From UHGV virus genome UHGV-0159580: a stretch of DNA of 15,256 nt; one strand, written 5' to 3'. The stretch is from a virus. The notes beneath the pieces were generated by a model, which saw nothing but the letters and a program-made list of their open reading frames with translations, was not told the origin of the DNA and ran no database searches. This document shows positions 5,283 through 15,240 of the stretch, piece by piece (position 1 is the stretch's first letter; each line of letters starts with the position of its first letter). The position numbers and the translations under genes are program-made.

Positions 5283-5651
5283 TTATTGCATATTGTCGAC
5301 AATCAGCTGTTCAAGTGCAGTAGCTGACAATGCGCCAGTTGCACGGCCAACTTCAATGCAATCACGAAAGACAATTGTCGTTGGTACTGAACGAACATTG
5401 TGAGTGCTATCAAGCTCATCGCACTCTTCAACATTCACTTCAGCAAATGTCACTTTGCCATTGAATTTCTTTTCAGTTGACTCGAAAATTGGCGCATAAC
5501 CTTGACAAGGCACACACCATGGCGCACTGAACTTCACTACAACGAGTGGATTGTTTGCAAGTGCTCGAGCCATTTCGGCTTTATGTTTGAGTTGCAGCAT
5601 ATCTTTTTTTATGTTTGTTGTTGACAATATATGTATATTTGCATTACGCAT
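5283..5651 (-). CDS. Thioredoxin (thioredoxin fold with a CVPC active site)
   Basis: FSAPWCVPCQGYAPIFE matches the thioredoxin WCGPC region with Gly replaced by Val. The C-terminal VRSVPTTIVFRDCIEVGRATGALSATALEQLI matches the thioredoxin cis-Pro and Gly region (E. coli GIRGIPTLLLFKNGEV...GALSK). The start at 5651 overlaps the upstream gene by 8 nt; an internal ATG at 5600 is possible. Confidence 0.85.
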   Translation of the reverse strand: MRNANIHILSTTNIKKDMLQLKHKAEMARALANNPLVVVKFSAPWCVPCQGYAPIFESTEKKFNGKVTFAEVNVEECDELDSTHNVRSVPTTIVFRDCIEVGRATGALSATALEQLIVDNMQ

Positions 5652-6099
5652 CGTCTTCTACAGCAAGAACAGCTTCAAGCAATCTTGAAGTGCCTTTGCT
5701 AATGCTCTTATCTTTGACGTTGGTGAGCTTTTTAAGGTCATACTGCATGATGCGCTCAAGCTTCTTTGCATGCTTGACTATGTCAGCATCTTTAGCACGC
5801 AATGCTTTTGCAATTTGTGCAGCAAAGATGCGCTTGTAAATGTCAAGTTCTACGAAATCTGCTGCTTTGATGCCCTGTTCTTTGTACAACTCAGTCAACG
5901 CTAAACCAAACTGATTTGATGCTCTGTCAAAATCAACTTTTGTTGCGGGCTGTTGTGTTGCATTTGCTGCAGCTTGAATTCGCTTTGTTACAAGCAAATA
6001 CGTGTCAAACACGCCTTTGAGGTATCGCTGCTCTACTACAGGCCGCAGCATTTCTTTGACTTCAGTAGAATTGAACGGTTGCATATTGTTTGTTAGCAT
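5644..6099 (-). CDS. Hypothetical protein
   Basis: 151-aa ORF with ATG start and protein-like composition. Confidence 0.7.
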   Translation of the reverse strand: MLTNNMQPFNSTEVKEMLRPVVEQRYLKGVFDTYLLVTKRIQAAANATQQPATKVDFDRASNQFGLALTELYKEQGIKAADFVELDIYKRIFAAQIAKALRAKDADIVKHAKKLERIMQYDLKKLTNVKDKSISKGTSRLLEAVLAVEDDA

Positions 6100-6117
6100 T
6101 TATATTGATAATGTACA

Positions 6118-7713
6118 TCAAAGCTTGAATTTTTGCACTTTTGCATCTACTGGCATCTTTTCAGCGTCATAGATTCGTTTTCGAGCAGCAAAGTGTTGCA
6201 TGTCATAATTGCAGTAGCAATAGCCTTTGCGAAGCTTGACAAGCATATCACTGTGAATTGTAAGCTTATGTGCAATATCAATAATGATTGCTTTCTGCTT
6301 AAGTGGATGCTTACGCAACAGTCGACCAATTGACTGTAATGTTACGTTGTCAGATTTGCCAATCATTAAGAACGCAGCGTAAAACCAAGCATGCACAGAT
6401 ACACCTGTAGACAAAGTACCAGTAGTTGCAATCATGATATGTCTGTCAGGCTCTGCTTCCATCATTGCAAGCATATCTTTGCGTTCATGCAAGGGTACAT
6501 CACCTCTAATGATGTGAACAACCTTGTCAACACCAGACTGCTGTATGAATGTTTGGCAAGCATCATAGATGTTCTGCACATGGTCTCGTCGTTTGCAAAG
6601 TACAAGAGCATTTTTGTCAAGCGAACAAATGATTTTTGCAATGAGCTTGTTAGCATCGACGTAGTTCATGCAATGATGTTGTTCTGCTGGAAGCAGTCTT
6701 GCAGTGTTATCAAACACTTCAGGATGCTCTTCAAGATACTGCACAAATGGCGCATCGTATTCTGCTGAATGCTCAATGACTACTCGTTTGATTTCAAAGT
6801 CAGACACGATGTTCTTTTCGAGTGCTTGAGCTACACCAAATGTACCCAATATTGGCCCAATGTACGATTCAATTGTCAAACGAGCTGCAGTATGTTCAAG
6901 CGGCAATGAACCAGACACACCAAGACGATAATGAGCCTTTGTGCAATGACTGAAGATTTCACGAATTGATGCTGCAGGTGCACCATGAGCTTCATCAGTC
7001 ACAATAAAGTCAAACTGTTCGAAAAAATCTGCTGGCATATTGACAAGACTTTGATATGTGCCGACAACCATATCTGCATCTTGCATTTTGTACTCATTGC
7101 GAACGCCTGAATGGATTTTGTAGAGCTTGTAGTTCTTGTTTGCTAAATCTGACTCATTTTGTTGATAGCTGACAACAATATCGTCAAATGCTTGTGATAC
7201 AAGATGCACCGAGGGTACAATCATAAGCGTTTTGCCATTGATTCTCTTGCTATCTTTTAAGAAGCGACTAATTACATAAACAAGAGCTGTTTTGCCATAA
7301 GACGTCGCAAGGCGCAAACAGCATTTCTTGAATTTGCAAGCAGTCAAAATGAATTTGAGCTGGTCGTCACGCATGTCAAATGGCATGTCAAGACATTCTG
7401 CCCATTGCTCAAGTTCTTCAAGCGATACAATGCGGTCAAAATTGTCAATGAGACCCTCAATCTTGACTTCATATGGAATTGGCTTACGCAATTGTAGGTC
7501 CCAAATACGCTTCCATAAGCCAAATGGCAAGTACACGCCATTAAACACATAGCAAATTTGCCCATTCCAATCTGCTTTGCGACCTTTACGCTTATTGACT
7601 GCTGCTGCAACAAAGTTTGGCACTTCTGCAGTAGCTTCAGCATACAATTGCTTGACTTCCAAATCATTTGCTTCGACAATCTGAAGCAAATCACCTATGA
7701 CTTTGAGTCTCAT
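6118..7713 (-). CDS. Superfamily 2 DNA/RNA helicase (DEAD/DEAH-box type; UvsW-like role possible)
   Basis: Helicase motifs are present in canonical order: Walker A LATSYGKTAL, motif II VTDEAH, motif III GVSGSL, motif V IATTGTLSTGVSV and motif VI QSIGRLLR. An N-terminal domain of about 130 aa is unassigned. Confidence 0.85.
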   Translation of the reverse strand: MRLKVIGDLLQIVEANDLEVKQLYAEATAEVPNFVAAAVNKRKGRKADWNGQICYVFNGVYLPFGLWKRIWDLQLRKPIPYEVKIEGLIDNFDRIVSLEELEQWAECLDMPFDMRDDQLKFILTACKFKKCCLRLATSYGKTALVYVISRFLKDSKRINGKTLMIVPSVHLVSQAFDDIVVSYQQNESDLANKNYKLYKIHSGVRNEYKMQDADMVVGTYQSLVNMPADFFEQFDFIVTDEAHGAPAASIREIFSHCTKAHYRLGVSGSLPLEHTAARLTIESYIGPILGTFGVAQALEKNIVSDFEIKRVVIEHSAEYDAPFVQYLEEHPEVFDNTARLLPAEQHHCMNYVDANKLIAKIICSLDKNALVLCKRRDHVQNIYDACQTFIQQSGVDKVVHIIRGDVPLHERKDMLAMMEAEPDRHIMIATTGTLSTGVSVHAWFYAAFLMIGKSDNVTLQSIGRLLRKHPLKQKAIIIDIAHKLTIHSDMLVKLRKGYCYCNYDMQHFAARKRIYDAEKMPVDAKVQKFKL

Positions 7714-7720
7714 GACATGA

Positions 7721-7768
7721 CTTGTTAAATGAAAAGAGGCTCAGACAAACAATGTCTGTCTGAGCCTC
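7721..7768 (-). terminator. Hairpin plus U-tract (terminator or attenuator candidate) between the SSB-like gene and the helicase gene
   Basis: Perfect 12-bp stem gaggctcagaca (7736..7747) with tgtctgagcctc (7757..7768) and a 9-nt loop. On the minus strand it is followed by UUUUCAUUU (plus 7727..7735). Confidence 0.45.
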
Positions 7769-7790
7769 GAGCATCTTTGATGCACTTGTG

Positions 7791-8921
7791 CTACTTGAGC
7801 CCGTTGATGAATGCTTCAGTTTCAGCATCCATCGTTGCTGCTGCAGGTGCTGCTGCCGGAGCTGCTGCAGGTGCAGGCTCTGCTGCAGGCGCTGAAGCTG
7901 CTGCAAACGGGTCAATAGCTGTCTGAGCTGCTGGTGCAGTAGCAGGCGCAGCTGCCGGAGCTGCTGCAGGTGCAGGCTGAGTAGTCTGTGCCTGCTGAGT
8001 TGCTGACGGATTGATGACAATGTCAGGCCAGATGTCCGACACATCCTTGTAGTTAGCAAGGCGCATCTTAACCTGACGCTTGATGTCATCAGAAGCTTCG
8101 TGGTAGCCCCACTCCTTTTCGACATTCGGGTACTCCTTGAGCATGTCGACAATCTGCTGCATGATTTGCTGCTTGTATGCAGGGTCAGTGTCATACTTCG
8201 CCTGGTCAACAAGCGTGCCATCTGCAAGCAGCATCGACGATACGTTGGGCGAAATCGTCGAAGTCTCGTAGTCACGCATTTCAACACCATTGACGTCTTT
8301 CAGCGTAATCTTCAAGAGAATGTCGTGGCCCTTAACGGGATGGAACATGTCCATAGGCTGAGCGCCCATCTGGATGTCTTCGTCGGTCGGCTTCATTGCA
8401 GACATGCAACGCTTGTAGATGGCTGCGGGTAACCTGTATGGTAACACGCGACCAACGTTCTCAGTGTGCACTGAATCAGCCTTGATTTGCACGAGGCAAG
8501 TGTACTGACTCTGCATGCTGAACTCTCGCTTTGCAAGTGCTTCCTGCTGAGCATCCTTGGTATTGATGAGATCCCAGTAAAAATTTGATACTGGGCACCA
8601 ACCATAGGGTTTCATCAAATTTTCAGGATTTTCAGGATGCGGATTCGGCGAGCTCGGCGAATTGTAGCGGAAGCCCTGATTAGCGCCAGTCCCAAACCAG
8701 TAATAGCGGATGATTGAAATCGGCACAGCAGGGTCGTTCAAGTTCGGCAGAATTCGAATGACTGCTCGATAGATTCGGTCCTTACTTTCGGAAGGCTTAG
8801 GATTGAAGAACTCGGGTCCTGCAGAACGTTCCGGCTTAGCAAAGCTTGCTACATTGTCCGGCTGGACATCAAAGATTGACAGCGGCCGATTGCCATTCTG
8901 TCCATTTTCAATTTGTGACAT
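7791..8921 (-). CDS. Putative ssDNA-binding protein, T4 gp32-like, with a Pro/Ala-rich linker and a short C-terminal tail
   Basis: 376-aa ORF with ATG start. RAVIRILPNLNDPAVP resembles the gp32 segment I recall as QAVIRFLPSKNDEQAPF, and VGRVLPYRLPAAIYKRCMSAM resembles gp32 [20 protein letters not shown]. Both comparisons are from memory, not a search. A PAPAAAPAAAPA low-complexity linker precedes the tail ...TMDAETEAFINGLK. Confidence 0.55.
   Translation of the reverse strand: MSQIENGQNGNRPLSIFDVQPDNVASFAKPERSAGPEFFNPKPSESKDRIYRAVIRILPNLNDPAVPISIIRYYWFGTGANQGFRYNSPSSPNPHPENPENLMKPYGWCPVSNFYWDLINTKDAQQEALAKREFSMQSQYTCLVQIKADSVHTENVGRVLPYRLPAAIYKRCMSAMKPTDEDIQMGAQPMDMFHPVKGHDILLKITLKDVNGVEMRDYETSTISPNVSSMLLADGTLVDQAKYDTDPAYKQQIMQQIVDMLKEYPNVEKEWGYHEASDDIKRQVKMRLANYKDVSDIWPDIVINPSATQQAQTTQPAPAAAPAAAPATAPAAQTAIDPFAAASAPAAEPAPAAAPAAAPAAATMDAETEAFINGLK
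7800..7990. repeat. GC-rich simple-sequence region (GCTGCNGGN-type) encoding the Pro/Ala-rich linker, with a duplicated block of about 30 bp
   Basis: gctgccggagctgctgcaggtgcaggct occurs at about 7850 and again at about 7942. The surrounding sequence is a near-periodic gctgc(a/c)gg repeat. Confidence 0.7.
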
Positions 8922-9037: not shown

Positions 9038-10291
9038 TTATCTTGCATGGCCACAGTCATAAACTGCAACATAACCTGCATCAATCATCTCTTGCTCATT
9101 TTGTCCGCAGTCTTCAATATGCTCTTTTGTTTTGAGATGACACCAGTGTTTGCGAATTGTCGACCTGTCATCTGACAGATGTGGCTTAAGTGCGAAGTCA
9201 GTTGAATCTACAGGTTCACCTGCAAGATGCTTTCTAATGACGTCAATGACTTCATTGTCATCCATCCATTCGAATATTGTAATGCAAGTGTAGCCATGCT
9301 TGAGAGCAAGCTGAGTTTTGTCGAAGTGATATTGCGTGCCAGTCGGCCAATTGTCTTTTGATTTGCCAACAATATAAATGTATGACAATGTTGAATTATG
9401 CGTAATTGTTGGATTGACTTCAATCAATAACTTACAACAATCATTGACATAGCTAAGGTCATATGAACGATTTTCAATGTTAACTGCATCAAAATCACAC
9501 GCAATTCCAAGTTCTTGCAATAATTTGTCATGCCACCATTTATTTGCTTTTGATATGACTTTGCCTTGTGCTGTACGACATTTAGTAGTCATACAATGCC
9601 AAGGCACACCATAACGTTGCATACATGTTTCTGATACTTTACTCATATTGCCGCATCCATTGCCGTATCGCTCACGCTTTATTGCAACGCATTTAGCAAT
9701 GTCACCAAACCCATTACCATATCGCTCACGCTTTGTCGCAATTGATTTAGCAATGTTGCCTGGTCCCGCATTGCCATATCGCTCACGCTTTGTCGCATGA
9801 ATTTTGTCAATAGGCCCAATTGCATTGCCATATTTAGCAATCTTTGCAGCAACAGTCTTTTGCATAGTTTCAGCACTGCATACACCATTATCATAGCGTT
9901 CAAGCTTTGTTGCTACTGCTTTCTGCGGATTACCTGAACGTGCGCCATAGCGTGCAATATTTGTTGCTTCACATTTTTCTTTTGGCCCAAATGTGTTGCC
10001 ATACAGTAGCTTCTTTGTGGCTTGCTGACGTTCAAGAGGTCCTTGTGCATAACCATAGCGCTCAATATTTGTTTGCTTACTTTTATCAATGACTGATTGC
10101 ACAAGTCTACAACTTTCTACACCATATTTGCGTAAGCACCCAATTTTTGTGCCATATCGATTCTTAATTTTGCCGTGTACAGTGACATTTCTGCTCAACC
10201 GAATGTTCTCAGTTGTTCTCAACAACTCATCTCGCTCTTGCTCAAGTTCTGCAATTCGTTTCTCAAGAGCTTCACCAGTTAGTGGTGTCAT
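9038..10291 (-). CDS. Repeat-containing protein: N-terminal coiled coil, about 9-10 tandem repeats of about 21 aa with an (K/E)RYG(N) core, and a C-terminal Vsr/DUF559-like PD-(D/E)xK endonuclease-like domain (homing-endonuclease-like)
   Basis: 417-aa ORF with ATG start and an ATGA overlap with the upstream gene. Repeats include IATKRERYGNAGPGNIAKS, IATKRERYGNGFGDIAKCV and AIKRERYGNGCGNM. The C-terminus LLIEVNPTITHNS...HFDKTQLALKHGYTCITIFEW follows the Vsr/DUF559 pattern (IEvDG..H...D..R...L...GW.vlRf). The domain assignment is by motif only. Confidence 0.45.
   Translation of the reverse strand: MTPLTGEALEKRIAELEQERDELLRTTENIRLSRNVTVHGKIKNRYGTKIGCLRKYGVESCRLVQSVIDKSKQTNIERYGYAQGPLERQQATKKLLYGNTFGPKEKCEATNIARYGARSGNPQKAVATKLERYDNGVCSAETMQKTVAAKIAKYGNAIGPIDKIHATKRERYGNAGPGNIAKSIATKRERYGNGFGDIAKCVAIKRERYGNGCGNMSKVSETCMQRYGVPWHCMTTKCRTAQGKVISKANKWWHDKLLQELGIACDFDAVNIENRSYDLSYVNDCCKLLIEVNPTITHNSTLSYIYIVGKSKDNWPTGTQYHFDKTQLALKHGYTCITIFEWMDDNEVIDVIRKHLAGEPVDSTDFALKPHLSDDRSTIRKHWCHLKTKEHIEDCGQNEQEMIDAGYVAVYDCGHAR
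9657..9835. repeat. Tandem direct repeats of about 57-60 bp, at least three well-conserved copies, inside CDS 9038..10291
   Basis: attgccRtatcgctcacgcttt(a/g)t(t/c)gca... recurs at about 9657, 9713 and 9771, with degenerate copies continuing toward 10180. These encode the (K/E)RYG protein repeats. Confidence 0.8.
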
Positions 10292-11028
10292 TTCACTTCA
10301 GGTTTTGCTTGCTTGGCCAACTCAGCTTCAGCATTGAACTCTTTGCCCTCAGCTTTCATTGTTTCGGCATAAGTCTTTTCATCAGTATAGCGTTCTACAT
10401 CATCGCCAAGTAATTTTGCGACTTCATCATCTGCTTCAAACAATGGCTGTGGATTGTCATCGTTGTCATCTTTGAGTTGCTCAAATGTGCTGTTATGCTT
10501 TTCTGCAATTTTGATGAGGTCGACGATTGAACGAGTTACGAGTTCACCATTGATGCCTGACTGCTGTTCAGATTGACCAGAGCCTTGTTGCAATTCTGCT
10601 TGGGTTGCTCGAACATTATTGTTGAGTGACGCAAGTACATTGGGAAGCGTTCGACAATATGATATATATTGCTGAACCAACGACATTGCGTCATTCTGTA
10701 GTTTGATGAGAAACGCAAACTCACCCATGCCTCCGCCTTGTGCATCAATGCGCTCGAACACTGAATCAAGTGCATGCATTGCATAGAACACTTGTTTGCA
10801 AAGCAAATTGATGTTTGTCTTCTCCATCTCAATTGATGCATCAATAAACGGTGACTTGACATCAGCTGCTATGCACAATTTGCGAACTTCGTCAACGTAT
10901 TTTGAACACTTGTCAAGTGTTTTGTCAAGTTTGCTTCGGTCAAACTGCTTGTAAACTTCTAACGCATCGCTTACTTCTGCAGCATCCAATATTGCATTTG
11001 CTGCAGCCAATTCTGATTCTCTGCTCAT
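10288..11028 (-). CDS. Hypothetical protein with an acidic C-terminal region
   Basis: 246-aa ORF with ATG start. The overlapping 10536..10862 ORF is in another frame and less protein-like. Confidence 0.7.
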   Translation of the reverse strand: MSRESELAAANAILDAAEVSDALEVYKQFDRSKLDKTLDKCSKYVDEVRKLCIAADVKSPFIDASIEMEKTNINLLCKQVFYAMHALDSVFERIDAQGGGMGEFAFLIKLQNDAMSLVQQYISYCRTLPNVLASLNNNVRATQAELQQGSGQSEQQSGINGELVTRSIVDLIKIAEKHNSTFEQLKDDNDDNPQPLFEADDEVAKLLGDDVERYTDEKTYAETMKAEGKEFNAEAELAKQAKPEVK

Positions 11029-11049: not shown

Positions 11050-11664
11050 CTAGCGCAATATAGTCCAAGCTTCAATAATTGCTGAAAAATCTTCAAAGGG
11101 CATTGTAGTGTAGCCGGAATCACCCCAAGATACACCCCAGCTATTCTTAATGATGAATGAGTCTTTTGTGTAGCCGACAATTGACACTGCATGCCCACCA
11201 AAATTGCCATCGCCTTTCCAAAAATGCTCAGCATCAATGTCTTTTACGAGCATGCCAACAAAGACAGGCCCATTTGCTACAACAGCAGATTTGATTTCAT
11301 CAATTGTGTAGCAACGTCTGTATGCAGTTATTGGCAATTGCTCTGAGCCCTTTGACATCTTGATTGGCTGTGCTTTGAGCAGCTTAAAGACATCACGTGG
11401 AATCATGCCCTCTTGAGGTGCATTTGAACGACGCTCATACAATGCTTTGATGTCAAGCTTGCCTTGCATAGACAGCACAGAAGACCACCAGTCAATCATT
11501 GTTGCTGCTGTGTAAGCTGCACACATTGATGTACTGCCTTGGTCTTCTACTTGAAGTTGAGCCAACTTGTACACAAGTGGCAAATCTGTTTTTGCGTCAA
11601 AACGCAAGTCTCTGTCATCTTGAGGCGACTGGATGTAGCCCAGTCCATATGTCGTTTGTTTCAT
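11050..11664 (-). CDS. Papain-family (C1) cysteine peptidase, without propeptide or signal peptide
   Basis: All three catalytic-region signatures of C1A peptidases are present with papain-like spacing: VEDQGSTSMCAAYTA (oxyanion Gln six residues before the catalytic Cys, as papain Q19/C25), GGHAVSIVGY (catalytic His; papain DHAVAAVGY) and IKNSWGVSWGDSGY (catalytic Asn; papain IKNSWGTGWGENGY). Confidence 0.85.
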   Translation of the reverse strand: MKQTTYGLGYIQSPQDDRDLRFDAKTDLPLVYKLAQLQVEDQGSTSMCAAYTAATMIDWWSSVLSMQGKLDIKALYERRSNAPQEGMIPRDVFKLLKAQPIKMSKGSEQLPITAYRRCYTIDEIKSAVVANGPVFVGMLVKDIDAEHFWKGDGNFGGHAVSIVGYTKDSFIIKNSWGVSWGDSGYTTMPFEDFSAIIEAWTILR

Positions 11665-11679
11665 ATCAGATAATGTATC

Positions 11680-11976
11680 TCATTGTTCATGCCAGTGTCC
11701 TGTCAAGTCAAACATTGCTTCACGTTGTGCCTTTGTGCATTTTGCAATGTCGTCAATAATCCAACACGGAGTGCTTCCCCAGTTGCAATATCGAATATAG
11801 CCTAATTGCTCAAGTTCTGCAATTGGGTCATATGCAAGACTAACTGGCATATTGTACGCGTCAAACAGCTCTGGTTTGAGCTTTTGCAACAAAGTGTCAG
11901 CAGTTTTGCTATGTTCAGCAAAGCCGCAATATGTGACTTGGCCTGATGGGCTTAACCAGCAAGATTGCATTGTCAT
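11680..11976 (-). CDS. Hypothetical small protein
   Basis: 98-aa ORF with ATG start and an ATGA overlap with the upstream lipoprotein-like gene. Confidence 0.6.
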   Translation of the reverse strand: MTMQSCWLSPSGQVTYCGFAEHSKTADTLLQKLKPELFDAYNMPVSLAYDPIAELEQLGYIRYCNWGSTPCWIIDDIAKCTKAQREAMFDLTGHWHEQ

Positions 11977-12335
11977 TCATTTGGTTGAGGCTCAATTCGC
12001 ATCACTACACGCACAGAATCTCTATAAGGATAAACTGACGCAACAATCAAATACCAACGTTTGTCGTCAACTTCGCCATTTGACTTGATGTATGGCGCAG
12101 AAGTAGCAATATATCGAGCATGTTTGAATGTCGTATCTACTCTTGCAACAAGACAGGTAGAATCAGTCGCTTGAGCATGCCACACATCAATTTCAGGCAA
12201 ATGTGTATTGTGTGCGTTGCATACACTGTCAACAAATTCTCGTGGTTGCAAAGTGACAGTCGACACATATGTTGGTTTAACTGCAGCACATGCAATACAT
12301 GCAATTGCAATGAACAACAATGTAAATCGTTTCAT
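11973..12335 (-). CDS. Putative secreted protein or lipoprotein (N-terminal signal peptide with Cys-containing lipobox-like segment)
   Basis: MKRFTLLFIAIACIACAAV has a positively charged N-terminus, a hydrophobic core and IAC/IAC cysteines at positions 13 and 16. 120 aa, ATG start. Confidence 0.65.
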   Translation of the reverse strand: MKRFTLLFIAIACIACAAVKPTYVSTVTLQPREFVDSVCNAHNTHLPEIDVWHAQATDSTCLVARVDTTFKHARYIATSAPYIKSNGEVDDKRWYLIVASVYPYRDSVRVVMRIEPQPNE

Positions 12336-12339
12336 ATTC

Positions 12340-12600
12340 TTAGACGTTTTGTAGTTCTACAATATCATATCGCTTATGCAATTCAGACCAGTCACGAACG
12401 TAGCCTGTCATAAAGACGTGCAACATGTATGGTTTGTTGTCAGCATACTTGACTGCGCCTGCAGCATCTTTGATTTGCTTGGCTGTTAGCCAAACTTCTG
12501 CATTGTTGTTTGCATATACACAACGATACACCGGTTCTGATAATTCAGTCACTGTGATTTTCTTGCCATTGCGAAGTATGCATCGTACTTGTTTGTCCAT
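12340..12600 (-). CDS. Hypothetical small protein, paralog of CDS 12924..13208
   Basis: The ORF-track start at 12609 is TTG; the first ATG is at 12600 (MDKQVRCILRNGKKITVTELSEPVYRC...HVFMTGYVRDWSELHKRY). It aligns with the 12924..13208 product (NG..I.ITEL..PV..C...LHV...GYVR.W.EL). Confidence 0.65.
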   Translation of the reverse strand: MDKQVRCILRNGKKITVTELSEPVYRCVYANNNAEVWLTAKQIKDAAGAVKYADNKPYMLHVFMTGYVRDWSELHKRYDIVELQNV

Positions 12601-12630
12601 TGCTTGCAATTTATGATATTGTTAAGATAT

Positions 12631-12927
12631 CTACAAAAAGCAATGCACCATAAAACCCAAGAACATAATTATTGCAGGCTGCATGATGCAATACATAAAG
12701 AACTGTGCAGCAATTGGCAATTCACTGAACTTGTTGACTGTGTCATGATTCTTGAACAATGCCAGTACAAATGATATCCCAATTGCATGCTTAAGTGATA
12801 ACGCAGTCAATGCGGGCCACACGGGCATTACAAACCACTCCCAGAAGTTCATAATAATGCAGCCATTCAGAATGTAGCCTAACAGCATGAACACAATGCA
12901 TGCAACAGTTATCAGAAAGTTTTTCAT
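12631..12927 (-). CDS. Small integral membrane protein (about 3 predicted TM helices)
   Basis: 98 aa with ATG start. Three hydrophobic stretches: FLITVACIVFMLLGYILNGCIIM, VWPALTALSLKHAIGISFVLALF and FFMYCIMQPAIIMFLGFMVHCFL. ATGA overlap with the upstream paralog gene. Confidence 0.7.
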   Translation of the reverse strand: MKNFLITVACIVFMLLGYILNGCIIMNFWEWFVMPVWPALTALSLKHAIGISFVLALFKNHDTVNKFSELPIAAQFFMYCIMQPAIIMFLGFMVHCFL

Positions 12928-13208
12928 ATACGCTCAAGTTTTATGATGTCAGTTCTTAATGATTTGTATGCGGCAAATAATTCAGTCCAGCCTCGTACAT
13001 AACCAACGCCAATTACATGCAATGCATGCGCATCTGGTTTTGCATGACAATGTCTTGCATGAGGCTGCTGTTCAAGTTCTGCTTGTGTAAGATAGGCCTT
13101 TGATGAGTCATCATGCACAAAACATGGAAATACTGGCTGTGCAAGTTCTGTTATGTCAATGTCTTGACCATTAGATAGCTTTGCAAGATATAATGTATTG
13201 GCTTGCAT
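12924..13208 (-). CDS. Hypothetical small protein, paralog of CDS 12340..12600
   Basis: 94 aa with ATG start (MQANTLYLAKLSNGQDIDITELAQPVFPC...HVIGVGYVRGWTELFAAYK). Shares conserved blocks with the 12340..12600 product. Confidence 0.65.
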   Translation of the reverse strand: MQANTLYLAKLSNGQDIDITELAQPVFPCFVHDDSSKAYLTQAELEQQPHARHCHAKPDAHALHVIGVGYVRGWTELFAAYKSLRTDIIKLERI

Positions 13209-14667: not shown

Positions 14668-14700
14668 CATAAAATAAGCAGCTTAGCAATCTAAGCTGCT
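14668..14700 (-). terminator. Rho-independent terminator candidate downstream of minus-strand CDS 14725..15240
   Basis: Perfect 10-bp stem agcagcttag/ctaagctgct with a 4-nt loop at 14677..14700, followed on the minus strand by UAUUUUAUG (plus 14668..14676). Confidence 0.55.
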
Positions 14701-14724: not shown

Positions 14725-15240
14725 TCATTTGTAGTGTTCAGTTATGTATGCAGAGCATAGCAATACAACTGATATGCAAATGACAATGTATGTTGGCGTA
14801 ATCAGTGTTACATTGAATAACAATGCAGTCAATGCGCATACTGTTACTGATATGAGTGTTGAAATGAATGCAGCATATGCACTAAATTTGCTTTTGAACA
14901 AACGTTCAATGACATATGTTGTCGCAACAGACAGTAAGACTACATATGCAAATAACAACAGCCAAGTTGAGTTTGACGTTGTTGGCTCTTCAATAAACTG
15001 CAATGTTGCTGATGGCACTTCAATGTTATTTGATGCTTGCAAAGTGCCGCTTACTGCATCTGCATACATCACAGTTAAGTAGTGTCGTTGAATTTCTGCT
15101 GCGTCTACTTTATAGATTCTATGCCATGCAACATCTGATATGATGTATGTTGCAGCCATAAATACAGCAATGCATAGCATATAAGAGCCAAACTTTGCAA
15201 TCGGTTTCATGCAAATATATTTTTGTTTGTATATGTACAT
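14725..15240 (-). CDS. Integral membrane protein (about 4 predicted TM helices), function unknown
   Basis: 171-aa ORF from ATG at 15240; an alternative ATG at 15210 gives MKPIAKFGSYMLCIAVFMAATYII... Hydrophobic segments include LCIAVFMAATYIISDVAW, WLLLFAYVVLLSVATTYVI, AAFISTLISVTVCALTALLF and IVICISVVLLCSAYI. Confidence 0.7.
   Translation of the reverse strand: MYIYKQKYICMKPIAKFGSYMLCIAVFMAATYIISDVAWHRIYKVDAAEIQRHYLTVMYADAVSGTLQASNNIEVPSATLQFIEEPTTSNSTWLLLFAYVVLLSVATTYVIERLFKSKFSAYAAFISTLISVTVCALTALLFNVTLITPTYIVICISVVLLCSAYITEHYK

Follow-up and report, generated by a model that had tools for sequence, protein, structure and literature searches.

A short xylellain-type C1A cysteine peptidase and its conserved lipoprotein neighbour in a phage genome

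The window analysed here is a 15,256-nucleotide stretch of the virus genome UHGV-0159580, equal to one complete metagenomic contig (ENA ERZ507895 NODE_2236), and the gene under study lies on its minus strand at positions 11050–11664, where an open reading frame (ORF) with an ATG start and a TAG stop encodes a 204-residue cysteine peptidase of the C1A (papain) family and of the short, xylellain-like type. A second minus-strand gene (11973–12335) encodes a small predicted lipoprotein of 120 residues, recognised by its lipobox cysteine (Cys16, or Cys13) and by a family profile, and the 308 nt that separate the two genes hold one intervening ORF (11680–11976, minus strand), which encodes 98 residues rich in cysteine and histidine. 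The start of this ORF overlaps the stop of the lipoprotein gene by four bases (11973–11976), and its own stop falls 15 nt before the peptidase ATG. All credible genes of the window are on the minus strand, and the peptidase gene is therefore downstream of the lipoprotein and membrane-protein genes in the order of transcription. A preliminary description of this DNA had placed it immediately upstream of a membrane/lipoprotein module; the order has to be reversed, while the nearness that it pointed to proved to be a conserved linkage.

That this ORF is a papain-family (C1A) peptidase in a phage, with its catalytic residues intact, is almost certain from the sequence comparisons (Pfam, PHROG and Protein Data Bank (PDB) sequences) and from an AlphaFold2 (AF2) model compared by Foldseek. 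The protein matches PF00112 (Peptidase_C1) at 42.9 bits (E = 8e-11) against a curated Pfam cut-off of 20.7 bits, the same family is found in most of its homologues, and PHROG 16701, annotated ‘peptidase’, matches residues 10–198 (6.7e-20). A phmmer search of all PDB sequences returned papain-family enzymes only (procerain B, ervatamins, xylellain, papain and cathepsins), and a search of NCBIfam gave no match. PF00112 is the sole Pfam family to pass its threshold: no peptidoglycan-hydrolase domain rose above it, and a match to Peptidase_C39_2 stayed below (20 bits vs a 24-bit cut-off, E = 0.0011). The base composition at the locus carries no sign of recent acquisition.

The predicted catalytic residues are Gln42, Cys48, His158 and Asn174, to which Trp176 can be added. 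The segment QGSTSMC (Gln42 to Cys48) is in register with QGSCGSC of papain (Gln19 to Cys25) through the ervatamin and xylellain alignments, and HMMER aligns the longer block DQGSTSMC to NQGxCGSC; HMMER alignment also sets the histidine of GGHAV (His158) on papain His159 and, within the NSWG block, Asn174 on papain Asn175 and Trp176 on papain Trp177. In the DNA, Cys48 is encoded by TGT at 11521–11523, His158 by CAT at 11191–11193 and Asn174 by AAT at 11143–11145, and the reading frame puts the Gln42 codon at 11539–11541. None of the 18 aligned homologues departs from the histidine, the NSWG block or several of the glycines, the glutamine and cysteine are nearly invariant, and the enzyme is apparently active and catalytically complete as far as its residues can tell.

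The AF2 model, built on an alignment of homologues, has a mean predicted local distance difference test score (pLDDT) of 93.3 and a predicted template modelling score of 0.91. Compared with the PDB by Foldseek, it gave 259 matches at E ≤ 1e-3, with papain-family structures making up all 50 among the matches listed and xylellain (3OIS) at the top, at a template modelling (TM) score of 0.83–0.85 normalised to the query; as modelled, the window peptidase has the two-lobed papain fold. The preliminary description had read papain-like Gln-Cys, His and Asn blocks and the lack of a signal peptide from the sequence, and both readings are borne out, the former by the PDB alignments and the conservation among the 18 homologues and the latter by an N-terminus without any hydrophobic segment. 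The checks that had been proposed for it agree, in that the profile searches lead to PF00112 and PHROG 16701 and not to a non-peptidase family, and structure prediction and comparison lead to a papain-family fold with xylellain as the best match.

No I29 propeptide was found by Pfam in the window peptidase, and only ∼26 residues precede the region aligned to the mature N-terminus of papain. This mature-like region starts with LPLVYKLA in the window protein and with the consensus PxxYDLR in the family, for which we take IPEYVDWR to be the counterpart in mature papain. Residues 1–26 form a conserved extension with the motif GYIxSPxDDRD (family consensus GxIxSPxDxRD), which is common to xylellain: GLGYIQSPQDDRD in the window protein aligns to GYGYIPDIADIRD near the xylellain N-terminus, and the N-terminal segment of the window peptidase was aligned to xylellain residues 31–88. 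AF2 places the extension with a pLDDT of 75 for residues 1–10 and 91 for residues 11–20. Because of this xylellain-like extension the earlier statement that the enzyme lacks a propeptide is only partly right, holding for a propeptide of the I29 kind. Leite and colleagues are said to have reported in 2013 that the N-terminal segment of xylellain blocks its own active site, and if the phage extension acts in the same way the enzyme would be a self-restrained form.

With neither a signal peptide nor an I29-type propeptide of ∼100 residues, the window peptidase differs from the secreted C1A zymogens of the eukaryotic type, and by its sequence it is a short prokaryotic C1A peptidase of the xylellain type, with a single C1 domain, no I29 and a short, motif-bearing extension. 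Xylellain of Xylella fastidiosa (3OIS) and Lpg2622 of Legionella have the Gln, Cys, His, Asn and Trp residues in common with it, and both are likewise made without an I29 propeptide and a signal peptide. The differences are of size and of company: the chain in 3OIS has 291 residues against the 204 of the phage enzyme (∼24 per cent identity), and the bacterial enzymes of this type come without the lipoprotein gene, whereas the phage enzyme belongs to a separate, phage-only clade.

Taken alone, the peptidase is ordinary: it adds one more member to a family known from phages. A pattern-plus-tblastn scan of IMG/VR found relatives encoded on at least 483 viral contigs, and an annotated phage collection contains homologues in every Lak megaphage, as well as in Thermoanaerobacterium phage THSA-485A and in Gordonia phages. 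The homologues in these tailed phages (Tsac_2838 of THSA-485A, named ‘peptidase C1A papain’; the Gordonia ‘cysteine protease’; those of Lak), like PHROG 16701, belong to the same Pfam family, with 27–32 per cent identity to the window protein. Unlike the window gene, the THSA-485A and Gordonia genes belong to phages of Gram-positive hosts, stand beside canonical lysins and have no lipoprotein partner: that of THSA-485A (locus L093, 5989–6822) directly follows a GH25 endolysin gene in a lysis cassette, and that of Gordonia phage Aleemily (L095, 4644–5321) lies between lysin A and holin/lysin B.

Giant viruses on the one hand and Myoviridae and Siphoviridae on the other are reported to have acquired xylellain-type short C1A peptidases of bacteria independently (Kordis and Turk 2023; PMC10380794). 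Together with this published transfer, the IMG/VR contigs, PHROG 16701 and the Lak, THSA-485A and Gordonia homologues show that the remark in the preliminary description that such a gene is unusual for a phage was overstated. Functional data on the short C1A peptidases of bacteria come from only two species, and the physiological role of xylellain is poorly known (PMC10380794). Our literature searches brought up no work on the function of a phage C1A peptidase, and no experimental characterisation of the THSA-485A, Gordonia or Lak enzymes among them.

The lipoprotein gene is the sole neighbour conserved across the peptidase lineages. Three divergent crAss-like contigs have an ORF of ∼98 residues with a lipoprotein signal directly upstream of the peptidase gene, and an ORF scan found small lipobox-bearing ORFs at the peptidase start in ∼40 of 92 loci. 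When the viral peptidases are clustered at 60 per cent identity into 45 lineages and searched with a hidden Markov model (HMM) of the lipoprotein family, the lipoprotein is found in the locus of 24, and a 25th (L037) is added when TAG is read as Gln. It is directly upstream and on the same strand in 21 lineages, and in 20 of these the end of its ORF falls between 7 nt within the peptidase gene and 28 nt short of its start; the genes called in L010 share one base. The association survives other arrangements, since in L042 the genes diverge from each other across 33 bp and in L002 they stand 3.5 kb apart, while one extra ORF stands between them in the window group and in L027. The preliminary description had mentioned the lipoprotein neighbourhood only briefly, and this deeply conserved linkage makes it the significant feature of the locus.

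The pairing is confined to a single phage clade. Neighbour joining groups all 24 paired representatives (189–227 residues), the window group included, apart from the unpaired viral enzymes (245–556 residues, many of them from giant-virus bins) and from the bacterial ones; within this clade a lipoprotein gene nearly always comes directly before that of the peptidase, and the stop and start codons mostly overlap or almost touch. A degenerate-pattern DNA scan of 185,579 species genomes picked out 120 bacterial loci whose C1 peptidases have the same spacing of motifs (median peptidase ORF 275 residues), and the lipoprotein was present at a single one of these, L175 (2332–3296 on the 360-kb contig JBGVNW010000068.1, from a fecal metagenome-assembled genome named ‘Bacilli bacterium’). 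The peptidase ORF of L175 is fragmented under the standard code, and for this reason the contig probably comes from a jumbo phage that was binned in error. To judge from our searches, the phage-specific pairing of a lipoprotein with a short C1A peptidase in one cassette has not been described before.

The ORF that separates the two genes in the window (11680–11976) was considered as the conserved partner, given that relatives have ORFs of 96–99 residues in that place, and was rejected by BLASTP; the true homologue of the upstream ORFs of the relatives is the 120-residue lipoprotein, one gene further up. The intervening ORF occurs only in the phage group of the window and in its 66 per cent identical relative L008, is not found between the genes in other lineages, and has no match in Pfam, PHROG or PADLOC; it is probably lineage-specific and outside the core of the cassette. 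The ORF inserted in L027 (within 5322–6570) is unrelated to it and encodes 107 residues with two hydrophobic segments. The junction between lipoprotein and peptidase genes seems to tolerate insertions.

In some of the related phage contigs a stop codon seems to be recoded. The lipoprotein ORF of L037 (5672–5992) is complete only with TAG as Gln, which raises its score from 33 to 82 bits, and the standard-code translation of the L010 peptidase gene (8001–8660) differs from the database protein.

The partners of the peptidase are proteins of ∼100–125 residues, and 23 representatives, among which the window lipoprotein matches the partner in L001 (BLASTP, 1e-6), are joined by BLAST single linkage into a family. 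The lipobox cysteine and an Asp-Ser pair are invariant in their alignment, and a tryptophan is nearly so. Alignment and modelling predict a mature protein made of a conserved alpha/beta domain of ∼85–105 residues, with a secondary structure that runs strand, helix, an uncertain segment and three strands. The family is narrow, comprising only 56 representative clusters among 1.84 billion proteins, and offers no informative names and no match in Pfam, PHROG or PADLOC. A Foldseek search of the PDB gave nothing significant (the best match was a PAS domain, E = 0.045, TM score 0.22), and the family profile run against PDB sequences retrieved only the signal peptides of known lipoproteins.

In Escherichia coli the residue that follows the lipobox cysteine decides to which membrane a lipoprotein is sorted. 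The residue following the lipid-modified cysteine is never Asp in this family, which, by the E. coli rule, suggests that the protein is anchored in the outer membrane. The protein shares its lipobox with the outer-membrane subunit of two-component spanins, a short, Pro-rich lipoprotein encoded within or beside the gene of an inner-membrane partner, but its mature part is a conserved alpha/beta domain and a neighbouring type-II membrane protein is not conserved.

The cassette appears in very different parts of phage genomes. In the jumbo myophage contigs L039 and L081 it directly follows the tail sheath gene, in L028 it directly precedes genes for gp25-like and gp6-like baseplate wedge proteins, and tail-fibre genes surround it in L026 and L027; L065 and L067 are among the loci where it is a stand-alone two-gene unit with flanking genes on the opposite strand. 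The cassette, because its settings vary in this way, is seen to behave as a mobile accessory unit that moves between very different genome positions. Portal, scaffold and major capsid genes were found beside it neither in the window nor in 23 representative loci.

The products predicted from the rest of the window indicate that the surroundings of the cassette are replication and nucleotide-metabolism genes and not a recognised lysis or head module. From PHROG and Pfam matches these include, all on the minus strand, a dCMP deaminase (407–1132), a thioredoxin-domain protein (5283–5651) and a DNA helicase (6118–7713), and PHROG 224 identifies a single-strand DNA-binding protein (7791–8921). The last of these ends in a C-terminal Ala/Pro-rich tail of low complexity (PAPAAAPAAAP...), which lifts the local G+C to 0.54 from ∼0.41 elsewhere and yields a spurious ORF of 199 residues in another frame (7691–8290). 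A 417-residue homing-endonuclease-like protein (9038–10291, minus strand) has weak matches to PHROG 3339 and DUF7487 and many K/RERYGN-like repeats, and a much stronger homologue, from the same PHROGs, adjoins the cassette in L074 (1813–3588). An ORF directly downstream of the peptidase gene (10288–11028, minus strand) encodes an acidic protein of 246 residues that is 73 per cent identical to its counterpart in L008, above the 66 per cent of the peptidase; its apparent likeness to the gene beside the peptidase in the L042 group (6524–7159, minus strand; BLAST, 25 per cent over 131 residues) could not be reproduced with phmmer or with an iterated HMM and was treated as compositional.

Two genes upstream of the lipoprotein gene lies that of a 98-residue small membrane protein (12631–12927, minus strand) with about three hydrophobic segments in a hydropathy scan and a match to PHROG 2169, ‘membrane protein’ (1.2e-6). 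Its homologues are confined to the phage group of the window, so that it is not conserved with the cassette, and it is possibly holin-like. On either side of it stand two paralogues of 94 and 86–89 residues (12924–13208 and 12340–12609, minus strand; 34 per cent identity, E = 1e-17), neither with a family match. A further minus-strand ORF (14725–15240) encodes a 171-residue protein with multiple transmembrane segments, and just downstream of it a strong terminator-like hairpin (14677–14700, minus strand), with a 10-bp stem containing five G–C pairs and a T-rich tail, could mark the operon boundary upstream of the small-gene array that contains the cassette. A scan for sigma-70 promoters found sites no more frequent than in shuffled sequence.

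A copy of the peptidase gene product with 98 per cent identity is encoded on a 175,564-bp IMG/VR viral contig (L012; UViG 3300045988_149023), and the phage genome is therefore large. The enzymes closest to the window peptidase are encoded on crAss-like contigs, one of which (L009) carries CrAss_Ring Pfam families, and in the Lak megaphages of Prevotella, so that the phage of the window likely infects a member of the Bacteroidota. A related 27-kb contig encodes a protein with a faint match to a BACON domain, and the whole window found no match by megablast among 50,697 phage records.

There is good reason to think that the peptidase and the lipoprotein are functionally coupled, and we consider this probable, because a linkage so persistent suggests that the two work together. 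Since the partner is predicted to be extracytoplasmic, the peptidase would most likely act in the periplasm, and the reading that we favour, at a probability of roughly 40 per cent, is an action on the cell envelope, possibly related to lysis, with the lipoprotein as periplasmic partner, either an inhibitor or immunity-like protein or an adaptor. On this account the peptidase would be made in the cytoplasm in a restrained form, in which the N-terminal extension may lie in the active-site cleft by analogy with xylellain, and would reach the periplasm by a route other than Sec, through holin lesions late in infection or by ejection from a virion. There it might cut peptide bonds of the envelope, in envelope proteins or in the stem peptides of peptidoglycan. 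Anchored facing the periplasm, the lipoprotein would be dedicated to this enzyme. It could bind the peptidase tightly, as an inhibitor or immunity-like protein, and so restrict the place and time of its action, or it could be an adaptor, keeping the peptidase at the outer membrane.

The lysis cassettes that house the THSA-485A and Gordonia homologues, and the late tail genes among which the jumbo myophage cassettes are found, are consistent with an envelope role. The paired peptidases all lack a signal peptide while the lipobox cysteine of the partner is invariant, and an extracytoplasmic partner points to a site of action outside the cytoplasm. Several observations weigh against an envelope role. 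The bacterial relatives of xylellain type are signal-less and presumably cytoplasmic, and in both the window and the crAss-like contigs the cassette is found among replication genes (in the latter PIF1 helicase, RecA, sliding clamp and dUTPase). Small neighbours with multiple transmembrane segments, which might be holin-like, occur in 3 of the 23 representative loci, that at 12631–12927 in the window included. The AF2 model of the lipoprotein is of low confidence (pLDDT 60), and profile and model searches found no similarity in sequence or fold to staphostatins, Spi, chagasin, cystatins or spanins. C1A enzymes are not known to cut peptidoglycan, the sub-threshold Peptidase_C39_2 match being the single hint to the contrary, no experiment on the lipoprotein-linked peptidase family was found in the literature, and an inhibitor placed where the enzyme must act would be an awkward design for lysis. 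The lysis or endolysin-like role raised in the preliminary description thus keeps some footing in the distant homologues within lysis cassettes and in the extracytoplasmic partner, and loses some to the replication genes that surround the window gene.

The main rival of an envelope role, close to the host-protein effector that the preliminary description had also named, is that the peptidase is a cytoplasmic effector, cleaving host or phage proteins in takeover, anti-defence or turnover, while the lipoprotein has a task of its own, for instance in superinfection exclusion, and is simply inherited along with the peptidase in a moron-like cassette. The absence of a signal peptide throughout the clade and from the bacterial relatives agrees with this, as do the position among replication or early-type genes and the variable, moron-like placement of the cassette, and all the same we hold it somewhat unlikely: unrelated genes would hardly be expected to stay adjacent, stop to start, down to ∼30 per cent identity in 21 lineages, or to remain linked after rearrangements such as those in L042 and L002, and PADLOC found no similarity to known defence or anti-defence proteins. 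Portal, scaffold and capsid genes, by comparison, are so consistently missing beside the cassette in the window and the 23 representative loci that the earlier suggestion of a capsid or prohead maturation protease is rejected on that basis as scarcely credible; it has in its favour that the enzyme is a phage-encoded protease and nothing more, and an exported lipoprotein would have no place in head assembly. The family found here is C1A, and the prohead proteases known to us belong to other families.

Two other explanations also put the enzyme to work on the envelope. The peptidase might be packaged in or on the virion, be ejected into the periplasm and open the envelope at entry, with the lipoprotein inhibiting the same enzyme when it arrives with superinfecting phages; a signal-less enzyme with an exported partner would fit delivery from outside, the tight linkage would fit the logic of toxin and immunity, and the jumbo myophage cassettes do lie beside genes for tail sheath, gp25/gp6-like baseplate or tail-fibre proteins. 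We think this quite unlikely, given that a protein of 204 residues has no extra domain for attachment to tail or baseplate, that the cassette in the window and the crAss-like contigs is located in a replication module, and that translational coupling implies co-expression, where an early exclusion factor and a late virion protein would be expected to be made apart. Slightly less likely again is that the peptidase is the only peptidoglycan enzyme of its phage, cutting stem peptides as the sole endolysin, with the lipoprotein as a spanin-type outer-membrane component of lysis. Relatives of the papain fold (CHAP, NlpC/P60 and C39-like domains of lysin A) do cut peptidoglycan (PMC10318531), and the sub-threshold Peptidase_C39_2 match, the homologues in the THSA-485A and Gordonia lysis cassettes and the small protein with three transmembrane segments two genes upstream of the window lipoprotein could be read in the same sense. 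In THSA-485A and Gordonia phages, however, the C1 gene accompanies canonical endolysins and does not replace them, the window peptidase has no cell-wall-binding domain, a holin-like neighbour is missing at most loci, and the lipoprotein, unlike o-spanins, is a globular alpha/beta protein with no inner-membrane spanin partner adjacent.

Several known systems bear on the possibility that the lipoprotein is an inhibitor. In Bacteroides fragilis the C10 proteases (Bfp) are co-transcribed with small putative inhibitors (Bfi) of 116–138 residues, two of which are predicted lipoproteins, and one of the protease genes is on a prophage (PMC2873492). The pairs staphopain–staphostatin, SpeB–Spi and Bfp–Bfi resemble the phage cassette in that the gene of a papain-fold protease is tightly linked to, and co-oriented with, a partner gene of ∼100–140 residues, and by analogy with these clan CA protease–inhibitor operons the lipoprotein may act as an inhibitor of the peptidase. 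They differ from it in that their proteases are of families C47 and C10 and are exported, whereas the phage peptidase is C1A and signal-less, and in that the phage cassette has the partner gene upstream of the protease gene.

A parallel in concept, whose logic the entry-and-exclusion explanation follows, is offered by phage T4, whose gp5 tail lysozyme is neutralised by the periplasmic protein Spackle, and by MliC, a membrane-bound lysozyme inhibitor. In these too a small protein, exported or lipid-anchored, counters an enzyme that degrades the envelope and enters the periplasm with no Sec signal of its own. The comparison with gp5 and Spackle is one of analogy only, in that the enzyme there is a lysozyme and not a C1A peptidase, the genes are not adjacent and there is no sequence relationship.

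It is the cassette that is worth following: a monophyletic, phage-only branch of C1A peptidases that has kept a dedicated lipoprotein through deep divergence, in crAss-like phages and in jumbo phages of 100–400 kb from gut and other microbiomes. The mechanisms of lysis and superinfection exclusion in phages of Bacteroidota are poorly understood, and the pair, which is small, easily cloned and directly testable, could reveal a new accessory mechanism of lysis or entry or a new family of protease inhibitors. That it represents an undescribed two-component phage system working by periplasmic proteolysis is, on present indications, unlikely. In one form of such a system, proteolysis would sever the link between outer membrane and cell wall at the time of lysis, in place of spanins or in aid of them, and the lipoprotein would act as anchor or timer; in the other, the pair would resemble toxin and immunity, the lipoprotein protecting cells that are already infected against the peptidase that newly arriving phages bring. 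If true, this two-component periplasmic system would be widespread among the crAss-like and jumbo phages of the gut.

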